A stretch of 58,553 bases of DNA, the filler included, from Porpidia crustulata (taxonomy: Eukaryota): NCBI GenBank assembly GCA_964255105.1. It is 9 parts of 9 records of this genome, joined end to end, with 100 filler letters (N's around TTAATTAATTAA, not from the genome) between each part and the next. Parts side by side here need not be neighbours in the genome. Positions count along the whole stretch, not along the records: positions 26,100 to 32,514 come from CAXUWE010001549.1; 8 more parts are not named here. One strand, 5' to 3'. Positions 19,622 to 31,765 of the stretch are shown piece by piece (the stretch's first letter is position 1; each line of letters opens with the position of its first letter). The notes under the pieces were generated by a model, which saw nothing but the letters and a program-made list of their open reading frames with translations, did no database searches and was not told where the DNA came from. A program made the translations under genes and the position numbers.

Positions 19622-20393
19622 AGACTACGTTAGTAGTCATCCTTATGTCATCCGCGTGATGTCAACCAATGATATCAAGGCCGGAGCAACGTCCGACCGC
19701 CGTCTGTACCATCTGTGCCTCAACCGATGACTAACGTAACAAGCTGCACAGCTGCACCACTATTAATATTGATTCATGAAGTCAGGAAGTGATATCGTGC
19801 CTCGTCTCATAGCTACAGAATCGACGAGCACAGGAAGATGCAAAAGTATGATAACATTCAGGTCCTCCATCTGTACTATCTATACGATTGCCTATGGATA
19901 AACCATTTATCTTGACAAATTTGGCGCTCTCAGAAATTTCGTTATGCAGTTTTGGGCAGAGTAATTTCAAGGGTTCAAAACCTTAATTCGGTCGGACATC
20001 GGAGGAAGTCCCGGCTTCTCAAAACACCTACATTTGCCACCTGATACGTTCAACCTGACTTTGCTTCGGTCCAGATATATATCTTACTCCTACCAAATTG
20101 GGACACCACTGCACAAGTCAATTCTCAGTGCTCAGGATCGTCTTACCTTAGCCCGCAAACATTTTTTCGATGGAAGTATCGTAGGTACTACCCACTAGCA
20201 AGTCGTACTACTCCTCCTTACTTACTTATTGCCATGCAAGATTCCACAATCCATGTCCTTCCCCTCCCTGCCTTGGTCGCCTTTACCTTGGCTTCACTTA
20301 AAAGGCCCGGCGTTGGGCAGTCGATGATTTCGTCAACTTCGACGGGGCCCTCTTTGACGCAGGCACACGAACGAGACTGCATTGTCCTCAATC

Positions 20394-23300
20394 ATGAACG
20401 ACGATTCTCCAACATCAAGAGACCATGACCACGCAGGTCGTAGCCAGAAAACGCAGTCTTCACAGCAAAACGAGGTACCGCATTCAGGAGGCATGAAGGT
20501 AAATACAAGCGCTGAAGGACACACCATTCAACATAAGTGCGGTCCCAATTCCCCAGGCTCTTCGTCTGTGAGCTTTCCTTTTGGGCAGTTAAGTCCTACT
20601 ACTACAGATCGTGTGTTTCCAATCAGATCGTTCGTCTCTGTTGATTCTACACCTACGCCTGCCCCAGGAAGTCGCGTCGAACTACCTAGTGACAATGGGT
20701 TTCGTGCGACGATGTCAAGTGGTAGTGATAGCACCAGTGCTTCAAATGGTGGGTTACGATCTGGTCCGCATTCAGATTCGCCCAGCACCACCTATGCTAC
20801 AGAACATGAGTCGGATTTTGTAAATCATGGCACTCCGTCTAAGCTTCGTCGTGATACAGGGACTCCGCGATATAGAAGTGCCGGGCAGCGGCCATCTGGA
20901 AATGAACACCAAACAAAATCAATGTCAAATGAAGAAAGAGTTGGCGAAGGGAGCTCGACAAAAGGTGTGGCTCGGAGTAACTCATTGTTGTCTGGAAGTA
21001 CGCCTAACGTGGCCGGATCATTGGGTGGAGCTGCCGCCATAGATCACAGTGGAGAAATACCCAAATCTACGGGGGAGCTCCTCACCACCCGATTCAAGCA
21101 TGTTATGGCTAAAGATGGTCACGCGGTCGTTGATGGTCGAGACGGAGACGTTTTGCAGCGTTGTGAAGATGAACCAATACACATCCCAGGGGCTGTCCAA
21201 GGATTTGGGCTTCTGATTGCCCTTCAGGAAGATGATGAGGGCATGTTCAAAGTTAGAGTAGTTAGCGAGAATTCTAACCGGATTATTGGCTACACTCCTA
21301 AACAGCTTTTTGACCTTGATAGCTTCTGTGATATCCTTTCAGAAGAGCAAACGGATAACCTGATTGATCATATTGATTTCATCAGGGAAGATGACGCAGA
21401 CCCTGCGACCAACGGGCCTGAAGTCTTTACTCTTGCTATACGACCACCATCGAAAAGATCACAAAGAAATCTGTGGTGTGCTATGCACGCAAACATAAAC
21501 AACCAGGACCTAATCATCTGTGAATTTGAGCTCGAGGATGATACCCTATATCCGTTGGTACCTCCTGATGAAACGACCCCCGAGCCGCCTGAAGATACTT
21601 TACGCATCAATCCCACGGCAGAAGAGTTTGCCGAAAGTACTGTTAACCCAAGCAAACCTCTGCGTGTCCTTCGGGGTGCCAGGAAACGAAAAGGTGAAGC
21701 TGCAGCAATGGAAGTCTTTAACATTATGTCGCAAGTACAAGAACAGCTGGCGAACGCCCCAAATCTTGAGATGTTCCTTAAGGTCCTTGTTGGCGTTGTG
21801 AAAGAGCTGACAGGGTTTCATCGTGTGATGGTTTACCAATTTGATCATGCATGGAATGGAAGGGTAGTCACAGAGCTAGTAGATCCGAGAGCAACTAAGG
21901 ATCTGTACAAGGGACTAAAATTCCCGGCCTCAGACATACCTAAGCAAGCAAGAGATTTGTACATGATCAACAAAGTCCGGCTACTTTATGATCGAGATCA
22001 AGAGACTGCTCGTTTGGTATGTCGGACGTTGGAGGATCTCGAAAGACCGCTTGATCTGACATATGCGTATCTCCGTGCAATGTCCCCGATCCATATCAAA
22101 TACCTTGCGAATATGGCTGTCCGTGCTTCAATGTCCATATCAATCAACGCCTTTGATGAACTCTGGGGCCTTATAGCATGTCATTCTTACGGTTCGAAAG
22201 GCATGCGAGTCTCCTTTCCAATTCGCAAGATGTGTAGGTTGGTGGGTGATTCCGCCTCACGAAACATAGAAAGGCTATCGTATGCCTCCCGATTGCAAGC
22301 ACGGAAACTCATCAACACTATGCCCACCGAGAATAATCCATCAGGCTACATTATTGCCTCGTCAGATGATTTGCTCAAACTATTCGACGCCGACTGTGGT
22401 CTTCTTTCAATTAGAGGAGAAACAAAAATCTTGGGGAAACCCGAGCAAACCCAGGAGGCTCTGGCAATGCTAGAATATCTGCGCCTTCGAAAGATCAGTT
22501 CTGTTACTACATCATCCAACATCGGAGCTGATTTCCCCGATCTACGATATCAACCTGGTTTCACTGTCATCGCCGGCTTGTTACTCGTTCCTTTGTCTGT
22601 GGTTGGTACCGATTTTATTGTGTTCTTTCGGAAGGGTCAAACTCGGGAAGTCCGATGGGCCGGCAATCCTTATGAGAAGTTTATTAAACAGGGAACAGAT
22701 GGCTTTCTTGAACCGCGAAAGAGCTTCAAAACATGGAGTGAGACTGTGGTAGGCAGTTGTAGAGAATGGACCGAAGAGCAGGTCGAGACCGCGGCTGTCT
22801 TATGTCTGGTGTATGGAAAATTCATTGACGTGTGGAGGCAGAAAGAAGCTGCATTGCAGAAGAGTCAATTCACTCGACTGTTGTTGGCGAACTCGGCACA
22901 TGAAGTCAGAACGCCGCTGAATGCTATTATCAATTATCTTGAGATAGCTTTAGAAGGCTCTCTCGACCCGGAAACGAGGGAGAACCTATCCAAGTCACAT
23001 TCGGCTTCCAAGTCACTTATATACGTCATCAACGATCTACTCGACCTCACTAAAATCGAAGAAGGCCACGATCTTATCAAGGACGAAGTGTTTGATTTGC
23101 CAGCAACAGTGAGAGAAGCAAGTGAATATTTCGTGGGGGATGCAAAACGAAAAAAGATATCGTATGAGGTTATTGAGAATCCGGGTATACCTCAATTTGT
23201 TGTCGGAGACCAGAGACGCGTGCGACAAGCAATATCAAACGTCACTGCTAATGCCATACAACATACAAACAATGGTGCGGTAAAGATAGAACTCTGGCTA

Positions 23301-24974
23301 GTCAATCGCGGTGAAGATTCTGTCAATATAGACATTGTTGTACAAGACACAGGAGAAGGAATGCTACCTCAGAAACTCAATCAGCTATTCAATGAACTTG
23401 AGGAGATTCAATCTGAGAATGATGAGGGGCTCCAGGAAAAACTTGCCTCCGGAGATCATACGATCATAGGCAAAGAGAGCGGTAAGAAAACCCTCGGACT
23501 CGGCCTTGCGTTTGTAGCTCGAGTAGTTCATAACATGAATGGTCAGCTCAGACTCAAATCGGAGGAAGGTAAGGGATCGAGATTTGTCATACAGCTTGCC
23601 TTTAGCTTGCCAGAAGGTATTGAAGGTAGAGATGTGAAACGAAGCGCAGTCAATGCTGGTGTTGGGCCTCCTGAGAACCAGCCAACAACACCTCCAATCG
23701 AGGTTGGAGAGGTCATGCTAGTGAACAGAAGTGCGCAGAGGTCGTCGCATGAGGTTTCTGGCAAATCGTCGCGCCGCAAAAGTAACGAGAGTATGGATAG
23801 CACAAAGATCGCGAATAGTCTCAAAAGCTTCAAGAGTGGGTCGAGTGCGAGAAGCGATGTAGATCGACTGATCGATGCAGTCCAAGAACCACCTATGGGA
23901 ACTAAAAAACACTCTACAGGTCTAGATGTCTACTCTCCGCCCAATAGCAATCGACGTCAACGAAGGGTGTCATCCCGACGACCTAGTACCCTGTCCCGTT
24001 CTCAGTCGTTGTCGGACCGAATTCCACAATCGAAAACCCCGGGCCAAATGGCTATCAATGGTTCTAAAACTCCCATAAGACCTGTACGAATCCAAGGAGT
24101 GGACAGTCAAGGATCACCTGTGTCAGAAATCGCTCCAAGAACTCCAGCACGCATGTTATTTGATGTTCAGGATAATGCCAAGGAGTGTACTACCCGTTTG
24201 ACAGCGGATAAGCTGAACGTGCTAGTGGCAGAAGACGACCCCATCAATAGCAAAATCGTAAAAAAGCGATTAGAGAAGATAGGACATGTAGTTCATTTGA
24301 CGGTCAATGGCGAGGAATGCGCTGCGGCGTACGGAGAGAGTCCTACTACATATGACGTCGTCTTGATGGATATACAGGTGAGCACTTGGAGAGCGTCTGA
24401 AACACTTCTATAAGTATGTACCTGATTGTTTGATTAGATGCCGATTGTCGATGGCCTTGCGTCGACTAGGCTGGTCCGATCATACGAGAAGACGCACCCT
24501 GCAAATCATCTATCGGACCGTGCAACATTGAACGGCCGAATCCCAGTCTTTGCTGTCTCGGCTTCCTTGGTAGAGAAAGAGCGCCAGGTGTATATCGATG
24601 GCGGCTTTGACGGCTGGATCCTCAAGCCTATCGACTTCCGGCGGCTCAATATTCTGCTATCTGGTATCGTGGAAATGAACATCCGAGTAGATTGTTTGTA
24701 CAAGCCTGGCAATTGGGAGAAAGGCGGATGGTTTTCACAGGAACAGCCGAACGTCTTCACTGCGGCGCCAATGCCATCGATCAAAGCGCCGGTCCTTAGC
24801 ACGGGACCAGCCTCGGGTCCCGTAGAGCCACTTGGGGATCGGACAGATACGGAGCGAGATCGTCTCAACACACTTGAGACTGACGCTGTGCATTCGAGCT
24901 CCGAGCCGCAAGAGCTCGACCAATCTGGCAAGCTCAGTCAGTGTGTCGTGGAAGACTACACGCACCTACCCTAA
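20394..24974 (+). CDS. fphA: Fungal phytochrome (red-light sensing hybrid histidine kinase: N-terminal extension-PAS-GAF-PHY-HK-REC), 1 intron 24378-24437
   Basis: Chromophore Cys in QRCEDEPIHIPGAVQ, GAF motif FPASDIP, PHY motif PRKSF, H-box NSAHEVRTPLNAI, G-boxes DTGEG/GLGL, receiver VVLMDIQMP. Confidence 0.96.
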
Positions 24975-25999: not shown

Positions 26000-26099
26000 N
26001 NNNNNNNNNNNNNNNNNNNNNNNNNNNNNNNNNNNNNNNNNNNTTAATTAATTAANNNNNNNNNNNNNNNNNNNNNNNNNNNNNNNNNNNNNNNNNNNN
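26000..26099. other. Artificial contig linker
   Basis: N44-TTAATTAATTAA-N44. Confidence 0.99.
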
Positions 26100-26181: not shown

Positions 26182-29100
26182 TCAGGCCACGCCGCTAGCT
26201 AGACCCCTCCTCACCAACTCTCCCCACGCTCCCTCCATGCACCCTTTAACTTCCCGGTAACTAACCACCAGGACTGTCATCTCGTCCCTCGTCATCAGCG
26301 TGATCCTCTCCTCGCTTCCAACGTCCAACTTGTTCAAACAAGACGTTATGTGCCCCAGATCCATCACTGGATTCCCATGCGCATCAACTTGGTGGAACAC
26401 GAAATCGCGGAAAAGGCCGAGATAAAAGCGGGTGCCTTGCTCGGACCAGCGCGAGTCTTGCTCGTATTCGGGACGATTGTTAATGATATTTATCTTGATA
26501 AGTAGCCGCACAAGACGAGAATTCTCGAGTTCGCGGGCGAGGTCGGTATTGAGTTCGTCAGCAAGATGGAGTGAGGCGTCGAAAACTTCCATGGCGGCCG
26601 CGGTGATGGTAGTGAGATAAGTGTCGATACCGTCGCTGCGTTCGGGATGGACATGGCCAAGGAGCCACGATACCGATTCTAGAAGCTGCGGGCTATATGA
26701 CTTGGAGAGTTGCTCGAGCTGCTGTTTTGTTTTGTCAGGGGTATTGGCTGGGCTGTTCGTCCCGAGCATCAAAATCAGCTGCCCGAACTGGTAAAGGTCT
26801 AGGCGTTGTAGATCCGCTATTGAGGCTGGTGTGTCATATTGTATGACGTCCATGATCGCGCAAGCACTGAGGCGAATTCGATTTTCGCTAGTCATAATCA
26901 CTTTGCTTGGATCGATGACTCGAGCAGCAAAGCCTTTAGAGTGTATTGCATTTAACGCATTTGCTATTTGCACAATGTAGCCCCACAAATCGGGTTCAGG
27001 CACAAGTACGTTTGCGTTTTTATGCGAAAATCGAGACGTTGGCGTCATATGTTTCTGAGCTAGTGTCTCTGAACGTGGATGGTAGTCGGTCACAAAGATC
27101 AAGGAACTGTCGCCAAAGCCTGGGTTGGTGAATGATAGGAACACATTTACCACATTCCCGCTCCTGATACGTTTCCAATTAGACTGAACAGATGTGATAG
27201 CGGCCTCAGCTTCCTTATTGCTAGTCAAACGATAGTCTACAGATGTTAGAGCTAAGTAAGTAGAGACACGATAGGGGTACGTGGTTGCAATTTACCTTGA
27301 ATCCGTCTTAAACAGTATATTCTACCGTCCTTGCTACTGGTTGCTTTATACAGCCAAGTCTTATAGCCGAAGAGAGCATTGTCTTTATTGTTGGGGTTAT
27401 CTGTCAACGGGACTAGAGTGTGATAAGGCCCGATTGAAAGTGGTAGTGTGGAGTCTAGATATGATTTAGTATTTGTTTACTAGAAGTAGTTGCACTACTT
27501 TGAAGGGTATATATACATACTTTGCATAGTCATCAAAGCCGCTTCTGATCGCTGCTGAAGGCTCTGACGTAGATCCTCGGGGATGAAATAGTCCTTTGCG
27601 GTCCGCTGATTAGGCTGGAGCTCTCGGTGAGGTCCGAGTGCAGCATAGAGGTGGTATTGGACCTAGAATTAATTAGTAGTGAAAGAGTTGTAATAGGTAG
27701 ATGACCAAGGACCTGATGCTGGGTATAGTTGCCGGAGCCTTGATAGTACGTAGGTCCAGCAAGACTGCTTGTATCCTGTGCATAAGGATTGACTTGTGGT
27801 TGAGGTGTAGTGTGGGCGGGAGTTGCCGAAGTTGAAGCGTAGGGTTCGAAATAGTTCGCTTGTGGAATAGCGTCGGTATTCTCGACCTGAAAGGACTCCT
27901 GAGCTTTATGAAACGGCTGATTACTTGAAGAGGAATGAGATGGGAAAAAGGGACCAAGAGAATGATTACTATTGTGAAATGGCATGCTTGGTGAAGAGCC
28001 TGGGGCATTGACATCAAAGGGATAGGCCTGATGATAGACTTGTGGGTGGTCTCGTGTAACGGTAGTATGAGCATGCTCCTGTGATAGTCCTGGAGTAAAG
28101 GCTTCTGACTCGGCTGCAAGCCTATTGACGAAGGCTATATTTCTGCAAGGAATATGATTGTCGCTGAAGTGTGTAGATCCTGAATTCCAAGCTCCAGGGT
28201 GTAGACTCGGCTCCGAGCTCAGTGCACTCATGGTACGGGCCCTTTCAGTCCTCACACATGGGTAGGCTTCTGTACGTTTCTTGCCATAACACTTCCGCCT
28301 AGAGCTAGTAGTATCATCTTGTGCAGACTTCAGTGGTGATCCGCGGGATCTTGGATCATCCAACATAGACTTTCGACCGTTATTTCTTGGCGATGAAAAC
28401 CAATTGCCAGATACCTGGTCTTTTGGACGAGCTCCTTCAACCGACAGTGATTGGCGTCCGTTGGGCTCAGAGAAGGAGTTGATACGTCGCGCGAGATCAT
28501 CGCGGACTCCAAAATTTTCATATGACCAATCAATCTGACACGAGGAAGATATTGGTTGCAGAATTTGAGCGGCTCTTACAGGCGTACAGGGACCTGTTAA
28601 GAGATTTGGACCTGAGGAGGGTAGTCCAAGACTACTTGGGGTAAAAATCCCGGCATGTGGATTGGGACCCTTGCGAGGTGTGTTCATCGTGATGGTTTTG
28701 CAGGGCTTTGGAGGCCTTTGGTACCAGTATAGAGATCCGAGAATGTCTTAGCACTCTACGAGGTTCGGAAGTCCCGAGCTATGGCATCAAAGTATGGTTG
28801 AACAAGTAGAAGAATGATCCAGTATTGATTTCGAGGCAGCAAAATGGTCTTCGTCATACGAATTTGGGAAGACAGCGGTGTACTTCGAAAGTGAGAGCGG
28901 ATGAATACAAGCGAGAAAGTTAAACTCACAGCAGGTATAGTACTATAGGACTGGGGTAAATATTCTTGCGCACCAGGCGCTAACCAGTCAGGGGCGTTCG
29001 GATTGTACTGTTTCGCTGAACCGGACAGGGAAGGAGCGGCAGCCGCTAACTTCACGTCAGTGCCTGGATAATCACAGAAGTGGCAGGAACCAGTGACCTG

Positions 29101-29646
29101 AGGCGAGACCTTTGGGCTTGAACGGCGCAGCGCTGGCCGCTTTCGGAGAAAGACCTTTGCTCTTGGTGGGCACATTGGGGGAGTTCACTGCAAGCGCGGC
29201 TGGGGTGAAACTTGGGGAATCAACATTCAGCCGTTTTTTCATACTAATAGTCTTGATAAGCTCAGTGAATTGGTTGTCTATGAGGAAAGACCACGTCTTC
29301 GCACCTGTCTGCTTGGTTTTGAGGGGCACTCGGTTTTATCGGATCATGATTGAAAGCACACCCTTTCTCGATTGGATCAGCCATCCGCGGGCCAGGAAAT
29401 GAGAGTCTTTCTACCTTTATCCTCATATCGGCAGTGACCATATATCGTGACATTTCGGCAGAGCGTATCTTTGGCGCTTTCTACTCCCCAGGTCATGGAT
29501 TAGCAAGGCTGTCCGAGGCTACTTGACGGCAAGAATCTTTAGGCAAACAATTTAGCCATAAGAAGCTCCATACCACGCCCCTTGGGTCTAGGAGACGGCA
29601 CTGTACGCCGCGTCTCCTCTGCATGACCCTGGTTCAGAGCCGCCAT
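26182..29646 (-). CDS. PAN3: PAN2-PAN3 deadenylase subunit Pan3 (CCCH zinc finger, PAM2-like motifs, pseudokinase, C-terminal knob); about 9 exons with an ~1 kb intron 28929-27887
   Basis: [87 protein letters not shown]. Confidence 0.95.
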
Positions 29647-30178: not shown

Positions 30179-31765
30179 ATGGCGAGTCTTGATATTGATC
30201 CAAGTCTGTTAAACGAAAGCCAGCAACTAGCACTAGGAACCTACACAGCTGTTACAAATCAAGAACCTTCCGAGGCTATTCCATTACTGGAGAGATCGCA
30301 GTGGAATGTCCAGGTATGGGTCACGGCTTGGAAATCGTAAAAAGGAAGCTGATGAAATGCATAGATCGCTATTGCGAAATTCTTTGATGGTGAAGCTCCA
30401 GACCCAGTCGAAGAAGCACGAGCATCCCTAGAATCCTCAACTCCTTTACAGCCAGCCCGCCGCGAAACTCTGCTCAATAACTTGTCCTCGTCCTCCAGAT
30501 CTGTCAATCCTGTTCGTGGAGAGCCTGCTCCGCGAATAGTACCTCAACGAGAAAGTCAAACTACCTACCGGACTCCATTTATACTCTCTCTCATATTCGC
30601 TCCATTTAATGTATTAACGCGGATCCTATCAGGCTCCTTGAGTTTATTTGGATACCTTTTTCCTTTTCTTCCACGGCTGCTGTCCAGGCTCTCAAACAGC
30701 AGTACTCCTACAAGATCGAGACAGAATACCACGGGCCGGAAACCTTTGAATCCAAGAGATACAGCAGCTAGATTCGCTCGTGAATTCGAGGAAGAATACG
30801 GCAGTCACTCTTTGCATTTCTTCGAGCACGGCTATGCCCAAGCTTTTGATGAAGCAAATAAGGAGCTGAAATTTTTGGTGGTTGTGCTCATCTCACCGGA
30901 GCACGACGATACATCTACTTTTATTCGAGAAACTCTCCTCTCACAAGAAGTCGCAGACTACATCAACGACCCGCAAAACAACATTATATTATGGGCCGGT
31001 AACGTCCAGGACTCGGAAGCGTACCAGGTTTCCAGCGCCCTGAATTGCAGCAAATTTCCCTTTACCGCCTTGATCGCTCACACCCCTCAAGACTCATCGA
31101 CCTCGATGTCAACAATAGCTCGCATCTCTGGTCTTCTCCCACCCTCAGCTTTTGTCCCCAGGCTACGAACCGCGATAACACAGCACTCGGCCGCCTTGGA
31201 CCGTGTGCGAGCAACGAGGAATGAACAACAAGCCGCCCGAAATATTCGCGAGGAGCAGAATAGTGCCTATGAGCGGTCGTTAGCGCAAGACCGCGAGCGC
31301 GCGCAACGACGTCGGGAAGCTGATGCTGAGAAGACACGGTTGGAAGCAGAGGAGAAGGCGAGATTGGGGGCAGACGAGAAGAAACGGCGAGACCTCGAAC
31401 AATGGAGATCATGGCGAGCCCAAACGATAGCGCCAGAACCAGGCCCCAAGGCGGATTCCAAAGCCATTGCGCGCATCAGCATCCGCATGACGTCCGGCGA
31501 GCGCATTCTGCGTAAATTTACAGCTACTGCTCACATAGAAGAGCTATACGCCTTCGTCGAGTGCCACGATGTCCTCGAAACCCCTGGCTCAGAGCTCTTG
31601 AAAGCGGAAAAGCCAGAAGGATACGAACACGAGTACAAATTCCGCCTCGTGTCTCCCATGCCGCGTGTCGTTTACGACCTCGATTTCAGCGATCCGATTA
31701 GCAGCCGGATAGGACGCAGTGGCAATCTCATCGTCGAGCCGATTGCAGATGATGACGAGGTATGA
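30179..31765 (+). CDS. UBX domain protein (UBA-like/UAS/coiled-coil/UBX; Ubx2/FAF2-like Cdc48 adaptor), intron 30314-30364
   Basis: AIPLLERSQWNVQ/IAIAKFFDGE, membrane hairpin, UAS region (WAGNVQDSEAYQV), REEQNSAYERSLAQDRER, UBX region RISIRMTSGERILRKF...SPMPR. Confidence 0.92.

Follow-up and report, generated by a model that had tools for sequence, protein, structure and literature searches.

In the PAN3 gene of Porpidia crustulata, intron 5 measures 1043 nt, and its final 801 nt are, on the evidence of sequence comparison, very probably protein coding, continuous with exon 6, and translated. The reading that we tentatively favor is that PAN3 would yield two proteins, the canonical 662-aa Pan3 and a 776-aa form that would lack the zinc finger and start at the methionine at position 28687. 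The gene lies in the window, which is the whole stretch of 58,553 nucleotides of P. crustulata DNA (filler included) that was analyzed, and its features are collected in Table 1.

Table 1. Features of PAN3 and its intron 5; positions count along the window
Feature	Position	Strand	Remark
PAN3 gene	26182..29646	-	Canonical coding sequence of 9 exons, giving 662 aa
PAN3 exons 1-5	29646-29574, 29480-29415, 29362-29305, 29243-29098, 29045-28930	-	
PAN3 exons 6-9	27886-27713, 27662-27521, 27454-27296, 27236-26182	-	
Exon 5	28930..29045	-	Phase 0 end, ...QSYSTIPA
Intron 5 donor GTGAGT	28924..28929	-	GTAAGT at the equivalent place in L001-L007
Canonical intron 5	27887..28929	-	GTGAGT (28929) to TTTCAG/GTC (27887); 1043 nt, not divisible by 3
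5' part of intron 5	28688..28929	-	Noncoding signature; candidate site of an internal promoter or leader
Island ATGCCATAGCTCGG	28774..28787	-	Reads as a two-codon uORF, ATG-CCN-TAG
AAG, candidate alternative 3' splice site	28706..28708	-	Would give an intron of 28929-28706, 224 nt
Conserved ATG	28685..28687	-	Likely start of the alternative N terminus
Alternative coding region	27887..28687	-	267 codons sharing the exon 6 frame; predicted to be disordered, short conserved motifs present
GPNPHAGIFTP	28637..28669	-	Conserved PAM2-like motif; residues 7-17 of the alternative N terminus
DDPRSRGSPL	28331..28360	-	Most conserved block of the insert; candidate phospho-site motif
LAAESEAFTP	28091..28120	-	Window only
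FPSHSSSSNQPFHKAQESFQ block	27887..27946	-	Overlaps branch-point-like AGTAATCAG (27925-27917) and acceptor TTTCAG (27892-27887)
Exon 6 (VENTD...YTQHQ)	27713..27886	-	Common to both readings

The gene model and the open frame inside intron 5

An earlier note on this DNA had described intron 5 as far longer than the other introns of PAN3, and this was borne out, in that the other seven measure between 50 and 93 nt (93, 52, 61, 52, 50, 66, and 59 nt). The pairing that it proposed, of the GTGAGT donor with TTTCAG/GTC, also held: when the intervening sequence is skipped, the resulting 662-aa protein is colinear with eight Pan3 orthologues (48 to 58% identity), and the joint between exons 5 and 6 is ungapped. 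This joint, STIPA/VEN, parallels NLSI/VES of P0022, an ORF of a related lichen-type fungus that is probably a cDNA because it is uninterrupted over 651 aa on a 2.7-kb Logan contig. The last-exon ORF is 55 to 60% identical to named Pan3 proteins and matches the Pfam family Pan3_PK (PF18101; E value, 1.7e-55; 187 bits). Exons 2 and 3 encode the CCCH zinc finger DTLCRNVTIYGHCRYEDKGCAFNHD; P0075 has exactly this string, and P0045 has it with a single change, of D to E. Residues 23 to 50 of P0045, the counterpart of DTLCRNVTIYGHCRYEDKGCAFNHD, match zf-CCCH_PAN3 (PF25586; E value, 1.2e-17), which identifies the finger of the window indirectly, through P0045. In run X1, the whole stretch is found in one near-identical contig with all introns present and no joints, most likely of DNA source.

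The earlier note had also reported an ATG at 28687 followed by 267 stop-free codons that run in the same frame into exon 6, and on the minus strand this is exact. Counted back from the acceptor, the frame stays open for 287 codons, as far as a TAA at 28750-28748, and from stop to stop it comprises 404 codons. A frame of this length is more than chance: when the intron was shuffled 20,000 times, the longest open run ending at the acceptor was 189 codons, so that 200 was never reached, and the analytic probability of 287 open codons is ∼2e-6. The codon usage score of the insert is low (+0.077, compared to 0.15 to 0.28 in training ORFs), and no Pfam family matched within it. An AlphaFold2 model of the insert, built from a four-row alignment, had a mean pLDDT of 39.5 and no secondary structure; the region is predicted to be disordered. 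A search of the ESM Atlas with the insert gave no usable match, and none of 1998 candidates of 605 to 2000 aa was a longer protein holding the insert at E values up to 0.01, which is weak evidence.

Two other accounts of the insert were rejected, the first of them for the clade of the window. Plain retention of the intron, as in an exitron, would add 1043 nt (remainder 2 on division by 3; 1090 nt in L001), and reading exon 5 through leads into a frame other than that of the insert; plain retention cannot yield a fused protein because this read-through hits a stop at ∼28755. The proposal that the insert is a decayed duplicate of exons 1 to 5 was unsupported, the best BLASTP E value being 0.13 and hhalign (Prob, 0.7%; E value, 0.083) pairing just AGxFTP with AAPFKPK.

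Conservation of the insert and its motifs

The earlier note had named ORF conservation and dN/dS among relatives as a check, and both turned out in favor of the frame. A search of 1.84 billion representatives returned 12 matches, 3 of which span the whole ORF with 42 to 54% identity and the same Met start, and a search of 5.8 billion proteins returned 11 relatives with 37 to 54% identity; seven metagenome loci (L001-L007) have the same layout. None of the 11 database relatives or 7 metagenome loci has lost the open frame despite 46 to 63% amino acid divergence, in databases that contain open frames only, so that lineages with a broken frame would escape notice. The dN/dS of the insert against L001 is ∼0.29 (0.285), whereas exon 6 and the last exon have values of 0.11 and 0.10, respectively.

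In an alignment made from DNA only, identity between the insert and L001 is 0.59, 0.66, and 0.485 at codon positions 1, 2, and 3, respectively; of its seven gaps, five preserve the frame by length, being divisible by 3, and the other two, of 2 nt each, would cancel. Over the 242 nt located 5' of the ATG, identity is flat (0.49, 0.54, and 0.49), and only one of the five gaps (1, 2, 2, 3, and 17 nt) is a multiple of 3. As judged from this comparison, the coding signature, that is, greatest divergence at position 3 and gaps mostly in multiples of 3, begins at the ATG. In the conserved blocks of the insert, positions 1 and 2 are 0.75 to 0.9 identical and position 3 is about 0.4 identical. Conservation in these blocks thus has the pattern of a protein rather than of a nucleotide sequence. 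Among L001-L007 there are no indels in 831 nt of insert and one 1-nt indel polymorphism in the 259 nt upstream, located 83 nt before their ATG. The SNP columns of the insert are nonsynonymous in 19 cases and synonymous in 11, and SNP density in the insert, at 36/kb, is close to the 42/kb of the noncoding part. Within one species group, selection on the insert is weak.

The same pattern extends to the 3' end of the intron. The FPSHSSSSNQPFHKAQESFQ block is ∼0.9 identical to L001 at positions 1 and 2 and ∼0.4 identical at position 3, and its conservation is thus at the protein level. The L001 counterpart carries AGTAACCAA and TTTCAG, and this TTTCAG is the only in-frame AG close to the joint that the window and L001 have in common. 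It could be kept merely as Phe-Gln codons, and its use as the canonical acceptor is therefore putative. Within the 5' part of the intron, L001, L002, and L005 carry ATGCCCTAGCTCAG where ATGCCATAGCTCGG stands in the window, in surroundings that are ∼50% identical, a comparison of two species only. No promoter element was identified in intron 5.

PAM2 motifs follow the consensus L-N-x-x-A-x-x-F-x-P and bind the MLLE domain. Two PAM2-like strings had been singled out in the insert by the earlier note, and both are present, but only PNPHAGIFTP, which directly follows the Met, is conserved; LAAESEAFTP occurs in none of the 12 other rows of the 13-row alignment (the window and 12 others) and is specific to the window. 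Twelve rows extend over the site, and all but one of them (11) show the pattern P-N-P-x-A-G-x-F-x-P. In GPNPHAGIFTP, the N, A, F, and P of the consensus are correctly spaced and Pro replaces Leu in all rows; the N-x2-[S/A]-x2-F-T-P spacing is shared with LNVDSPSFTP in exon 4 of the same gene. The Pfam family PAM2 (PF07145) did not match P0136 or P0137 at E values up to 10, the positive control, an exon-4 ORF that contains the canonical motif of Pan3, was likewise missed, and P0010 scored 11.8 bits, under the cutoff of 20. By resemblance only, GPNPHAGIFTP is a putative contact for Pab1. In DDPRSRGSPL, residues D111, S114, G116, S117, P118, and L119 are invariant and the other positions are nearly so.

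PAN3 models from Teloschistales lichens (755 to 947 aa; NCBI MAG annotations) have an insert at the same place in 17 of 20 cases, with L-x-A-x-A-x-x-F-x-P, which is a near copy of ANAAPFKPK in their exon 4. As in the window, the insert is long, in frame before exon 6, and disordered in character, with a Met near its start and a PAM2-like motif. Unlike the window, some models read exon 5 into the insert, and a search with an HMM of the insert from the window's clade detected no homology in the Teloschistales inserts (best E value, 0.25, on unrelated Pan3 rows). Twelve of the 20 models begin at a Met within the insert and are zinc-finger-less, and 6 of the 20, all MAG annotation models, join the PAM2 exons (exon 4/5 residues) to it. 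PAN3 models from lichen genome bins are at present of three incompatible kinds, which start in the insert, are joined to it, or skip it. Dual-use introns of the kind proposed for PAN3 intron 5 are easily miscalled in annotation. Long Pleosporales Pan3 models (816 to 869 aa) and the Logan ORF P0092 were rejected as equivalents in a comparison based on P0090, P0092, and P0097; their extra residues precede the zinc finger and are not in the linker.

Possible products of the gene

In the two-protein reading that we favor, splicing from 28929 to 27887 would give the canonical Pan3, with its CCCH zinc finger, PAM2 region, and pseudokinase/C-terminal knob. The mRNA for the 776-aa form would start within intron 5 from a putative internal promoter and would be translated from the ATG at 28687. 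This protein would have neither the zinc finger nor the exons of the canonical PAM2 region but instead a 267-aa disordered N terminus, with the conserved PAM2-like motif at residues 7 to 17 plus other short conserved motifs. It would retain all that is needed for dimerization and Pan2 binding. The mixing of forms could matter because Pan3 is a dimer, and it is possible that mixed or homotypic dimers alter delivery of the deadenylase to poly(A)/Pab1. The alternative N terminus may bind Pab1, and deadenylation could be affected.

A somewhat less probable possibility is that the AAG at 28706 serves as the acceptor for exon 5, giving a Pan3 of ∼935 aa in which the zinc finger is kept and the insert lies between PAM2 and the pseudokinase. 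We consider it unlikely that this is the constitutive product, without a second isoform, and more doubtful again that this acceptor alternates with the distal one at 27887. The AAG is the sole in-frame AG located 5' of the ATG within the open frame, at codon -7 in both the window and L001, and the residue at this codon is K, K, Q, and K in L001, P0137, P0139, and P0142, respectively. Its use would explain the conserved donor, the noncoding 5' part, and the open frame with no new promoter. The six joined Teloschistales models are in keeping with it, and it is compatible with the colinearity of the canonical protein, since removing any intron-adjacent insertion also leaves a colinear protein. 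However, an out-of-frame AG lies 10 to 11 nt upstream of the AAG in the window and L001 alike, no aligned branch-point motif was found before it in the comparison of the two, and the resulting intron would still be two to four times the length of the other PAN3 introns. Conservation jumps at the Met, from 2 identical residues among the 6 that precede it to 12 among the 16 that follow. Of the 13 rows, 12 have this Met, which borders the motif; such constancy would be unexpected of an internal residue in a disordered region. Position -3 relative to the ATG is A in the window and L001.

The conserved Met start and motif, and the 12 zinc-finger-less Teloschistales models, would also fit a split gene in which the splice from 28929 to 27887 is unused, exons 1 to 5 encode a small protein that has the zinc finger and PAM2 and terminates at ∼28755, and a separate transcript started in the intron provides the only pseudokinase-bearing Pan3. 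Such a fission appears improbable: the donor is retained as GT[GA]AGT although the residues that follow diverge with frame-breaking gaps, the in-frame acceptor is shared and the branch-like motif retained, and the protein predicted with the intron skipped has its full length and aligns colinearly with the probable cDNA ORF described above. The least probable explanation is that the frame is not translated, having arisen by chance, being a former exon in decay, or owing its conservation to splicing or RNA signals. Codon usage that is weakly gene-like, a density of polymorphism similar to that of the intron, the lack of a known domain, and the poor fold prediction are what such a frame might present, but the shuffling result, the frame kept open in every database relative and metagenome locus at such amino acid divergence, and the contrast between positions 1 and 2 and position 3 in the conserved blocks all argue against it.

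A broader form of the two-protein reading, which we regard as unlikely, is that PAN3 is a two-promoter gene across lichen-type ascomycetes and that its disordered head re-invents a Pab1-binding PAM2 motif in each lineage. The intronic promoter would give rise to a zinc-finger-less Pan3 with a fast-evolving head that carries GPNPxAGxFxP in the clade of the window and, in Teloschistales, a motif almost copied from exon 4. Further regulatory motifs may be present in the head, among them the phospho-site block DDPRSRGSPL and a stretch, L-x-R-[RH], reminiscent of the LARR ligands that the pseudokinase domain of PAN3 has. By pairing with canonical Pan3, this form would tune how poly(A) is recognized and how fast it is removed, much like human Pan3L/Pan3S. 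If the insert is constitutive, the finding shrinks to a disordered linker that has expanded in one lineage.

Comparison with known systems

Exitrons are coding introns inside exons, the retention of which lengthens the protein. PAN3 intron 5 is like them in that a sequence removable as an intron can be read as protein, with disorder and short motifs, and unlike them in that its length is not divisible by 3 and the read-through of exon 5 stops. A literature search combining Pan3, alternative promoter, and zinc finger found no report, and the matches listed for Pan3 in lichens included nothing on the gene.

According to the available part of one report, Pan3 brings the Pan2 nuclease to poly(A) via three weak contacts, which are the zinc finger, the PAM2 contact with the poly(A)-binding protein, and a pseudokinase surface, and PAM2 motifs, that of Pan3 included, bind the MLLE domain of the poly(A)-binding protein (Wolf et al., EMBO J 2014, PMC4158885). 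Compared with PAM2 motifs, GPNPHAGIFTP is alike in its shortness, its disordered setting, and the spacing of Asn, Ala, Phe, and Pro, and it resembles the exon-4 motifs of the same gene; it differs in having Pro at the Leu position. If the favored reading is correct, a natural isoform in which another disordered head takes the place of the zinc finger and canonical PAM2 would amount to an evolutionary experiment on which contacts are needed.

Second isoforms of Pan3 are already known. In Chaetomium thermophilum, two Pan3 isoforms were cloned from cDNA, one of them "without N-terminal zinc finger" (PMC4158885). The likeness lies in C. thermophilum being a filamentous ascomycete with a zinc-finger-less Pan3 isoform; in the available part of that report, compared by its mention of accession codes, there is no sign of a long intronic ORF or of a new motif-bearing N terminus. 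In humans, Pan3L and Pan3S are made from one gene, differ in their affinities for the poly(A)-binding protein, and have opposite effects on Pan2 activity, and the optional segment, a cassette exon of 55 aa, precedes PAM2 within one N-terminal domain, as given in the available part of the report (Chen et al., RNA 2017, PMC5558910). As far as that account extends, the two genes would be alike in having an optional coding segment in a disordered N-terminal region beside PAM2. The segment in the window is unrelated in sequence and 267 aa long; it belongs to a long intron that follows the PAM2 exons, runs directly into the exon behind it, and may stand in for all of the zinc-finger/PAM2 part. If the two-protein reading is correct, the concept of antagonistic Pan3 isoforms would be extended from warm-blooded vertebrates to fungi.

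The PAN3 gene model and its long intron

In the canonical model of PAN3, exon 5 is spliced to TTTCAG/GTC at 27887, which yields a 662-aa protein. Exons 2-3 encode the CCCH finger, whose string in the database protein P0045 (one D-to-E change relative to the window) matches PF25586, and the last exon matches Pfam Pan3_PK (E 1.7e-55). This model, from which intron 5 is removed, aligned with eight orthologues (48-58% identity) and was gapless at the exon 5/exon 6 joint. One of the orthologues, P0022, is a 651-aa unbroken ORF on a 2.7-kb Logan contig and is taken to be cDNA-derived; its joint, NLSI/VES, is equivalent to STIPA/VEN in the window. The colinearity and the matching P0022 joint thus make the 1043-nt intron from GTGAGT to TTTCAG, as proposed in the earlier note, a sound canonical model. 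Near the joint, the window and L001, a metagenome locus from a relative, have no in-frame AG in common other than TTTCAG, and a branch-like TAA[T/C] motif lies 33-36 nt 5' of it; together with the matching orthologue joint, these features point to use of the distal acceptor.

The receiver-domain match of the neighboring phytochrome-type histidine kinase was weak and below the cut-off. Paired 44-base N runs occur every ~6.5 kb between 6430 and 52147 (16 runs, 704 N), with one pair (26000-26099) just 3' of the PAN3 stop, and look more like masking than assembly gaps.

Features of the PAN3 region in the window
Feature	Position	Strand	Description
Phytochrome-type histidine kinase	20358-24410	+	PAS_2, GAF, PHY, HisKA, HATPase_c
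PAN3 gene	29646 (ATG) to 26182 (stop)	minus	9 exons, rebuilt from sequence
PAN3 introns, in order		minus	93, 52, 61, 52, 1043, 50, 66, 59 nt
PAN3 exon 5	29045-28930	minus	phase 0 end, then GTGAGT
PAN3 intron 5	28929-27887	minus	
Conserved island in intron 5	28787-28774	minus	
Intronic open frame (insert)	28687-27887	minus	continuous with exon 6
LARR in insert	28495-28484		insert residues 65-68
UBX-domain protein	30365-31762	+	ORF start ~720 bp from PAN3 ATG, opposite strand

Coding signature of the intronic frame

The frame of exon 6 lacks stops for 287 codons upstream of the acceptor, back to TAA at 28750-28748, and 267 codons remain open from ATG 28687 (here termed the insert), just as the earlier note had read them. 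Open stretches of 200 codons or more arose in 0 of 20,000 shuffled introns (longest, 189), and the analytic chance of the open frame was ~2e-6.

In pairwise comparison with L001, identity of the insert at codon positions 1, 2, and 3 was 0.59, 0.66, and 0.485 in a DNA-only alignment, with gaps of 2, 2, 3, 3, 3, 9, and 18 nt, and that of exon 6 was 0.76, 0.86, and 0.52. Identity was flat (0.49, 0.54, and 0.49) over the 242 nt from the donor to the ATG, where gaps were 1, 2, 2, 3, and 17 nt. Conserved insert blocks had identities of 0.75-0.9 at positions 1 and 2 and near 0.4 at position 3, a pattern that marks constraint at the protein rather than the nucleotide level. Nei-Gojobori dN/dS on a protein-guided alignment, with dS near saturation, was higher in the insert (0.285) than in exon 6 (0.11) or the last exon (0.10). 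Among the seven near-identical loci L001-L007, the insert had 30 SNP columns and zero indels, the 259 nt 5' of it had 11 SNPs and one 1-nt indel, and exon 6 had neither. Because 19 of the insert SNPs were non-synonymous and 11 synonymous, recent constraint is weak (pN/pS roughly 0.5, alone not significant). Sequence comparison gives good support for the intronic frame being coding.

The codon-usage score of the insert was weak, no Pfam family matched it, and its predicted model was without structure (mean pLDDT, 39.5; shallow alignment). Taken as a whole, these features are those of a fast-evolving region, predicted to be disordered, that is kept together by short linear motifs.

Conservation of the frame in relatives

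When the insert plus exon 6 served as the query against 1.84 billion representative proteins, 12 matches were obtained, 3 of which spanned the whole query (42-54% identity), each with its start residue aligned with the window Met. All three come from ENA/Logan contigs (7-38 kb) as unnamed ORF calls and, since they extend into the next intron, are genomic ORFs rather than gene models. A search of 5.8 billion proteins recovered 11 relatives (37-54% identity) besides the window's own ORF. Seven metagenome contigs, L001-L007 (98-99% identical to each other and 45% to the window), share the window's layout, with a GTAAGT donor, a non-coding stretch, ATG, an 831-nt open frame, TTTCAG, and exon 6. 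The frame is thus open in relatives, both in the 11 database ORFs and at the seven loci.

The Met was kept in 12 of 13 alignment rows, the exception (P0141) beginning farther downstream, and was followed by P-N-P-x-A-G-x-F-x-P in 11 of the 12 covering rows. Of the two PAM2-like motifs claimed earlier, PNPHAGIFTP is therefore conserved, but LAAESEAFTP was absent from every other row of the alignment and belongs to the window alone. Further conserved islands amid divergent insert sequence were SEP(N), SSPR, DDPRSRGSPL, and FPSHSxSSNQPFHKAQxxFQ. Weaker fungal-contig matches (P0005, P0007, P0009, P0010, and P0011) also had long open frames entering exon-6-like sequence. P0010, an ENA contig ORF of 496 aa, has an open frame of ~320 aa and then exon-6- and exon-7-like sequence across an intronless junction; repeats of the SFSxxAEPFIPS type occur four or five times in it (Pfam PAM2, 11.8 bits, below the cut-off).

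The best matches of the Pan3 C-terminal ORF came from lichen-forming Teloschistales (49-60% identity; taxonomy checked), whose annotated PAN3 proteins are 651-947 aa. The window's organism itself was placed as an ascomycete, nearest to Lecanoromycetes, though only narrowly so. An insert was found at the equivalent place in 17 of 20 aligned models, with the motifs L[E/D]DPF, FGxAP, LPSxP, A[YHF]SDEP, and L-x-A-x-A-x-x-F-x-P; in several rows its LSANAAPFRPK is nearly the exon-4 FANAAPFKPK of the same gene. Twelve models begin inside the insert, without the finger, at a Met a few residues ahead of the conserved L[E/D]DPF, six join exon-4/5 residues to the insert, and two skip it. As metagenome-bin annotations, these models show ORF conservation, not transcript structure. 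Homology of the window-clade insert was not detectable to the Teloschistales insert or to PAN3's own N-terminus. Public lichen-bin PAN3 annotations (P0016-P0072) are of three incompatible kinds, and the Villophora model (P0021) has a CCCH-like C-x8-C-x5-C-x3-H string inside the insert that other rows lack.

Routes to protein and known Pan3 forms

Exon 5 reads through in a different frame and meets a stop near 28755, and the intron length of 1043 nt is not divisible by 3; simply retaining the intron is thus ruled out as a way of fusing exon 5 to the insert. We tentatively lean toward two isoforms, one translated from the insert Met, because the Met is conserved, identity to L001 jumps there (2/6 residues before, 12/16 after), position -3 is A in both the window and L001, and a PAM2-like motif sits directly at the would-be new N-terminus, its N-x2-[S/A]-x2-F-T-P spacing being that of exon-4 LNVDSPSFTP. 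The 12 Teloschistales models starting at an insert Met, and the zinc-finger-less Pan3 cDNA recorded from Chaetomium thermophilum (PMC4158885), argue for the same start. It is possible, with lower probability, that an upstream acceptor, in whatever variant, joins exon 5 to the insert. AAG at codon -7 is the only in-frame AG 5' of the ATG and occurs at the identical codon in L001 (residue K, K, Q, and K in the four rows showing it); however, an out-of-frame AG lies 10-11 nt 5' of it in both the window and L001, and no aligned branch motif precedes it. Such splicing would leave a 224-nt intron and give a zinc-finger-containing Pan3 with a linker longer by roughly 273 aa. If constitutive, which is compatible with the colinear skipped model, it would mean no second isoform at all. 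Gene fission is very unlikely, and an intronic frame without translation is the least probable reading.

Both the isoform mechanism and any PABP binding are inferred. Near its 5' end, where the intron is otherwise poorly conserved, a conserved island, ATGCCATAGCTCGG in the window and ATGCCCTAGCTCAG in L001, L002, and L005, reads as a putative two-codon uORF (ATG-CCN-TAG) ~100 nt 5' of the conserved ATG; a promoter element, or a YAG acceptor that would soon run into a stop, is just as plausible.

A literature search on an intronic PAN3 arrangement found nothing relevant. According to a 2025 preprint, the human PAN3 pseudokinase region is bound by LARR-like motifs from disordered regions of RNA-binding proteins (bioRxiv 10.1101/2025.09.27.678968). 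The insert contains LARR, where relatives have L-x-R-H; L-x-R-[RH] was found in 10 of 13 rows, and the link is a weak lead because exact LARR was found in 1 of 13. Pan3 functions as a dimer, and its finger, PAM2, and pseudokinase region each contact poly(A) mRNPs weakly (PMC4158885). Human PAN3 gives rise to Pan3L and Pan3S, which differ by a 55-aa exon beside PAM2, differ in how strongly they bind PABP, and act on Pan2 in opposite ways (PMC5558910).
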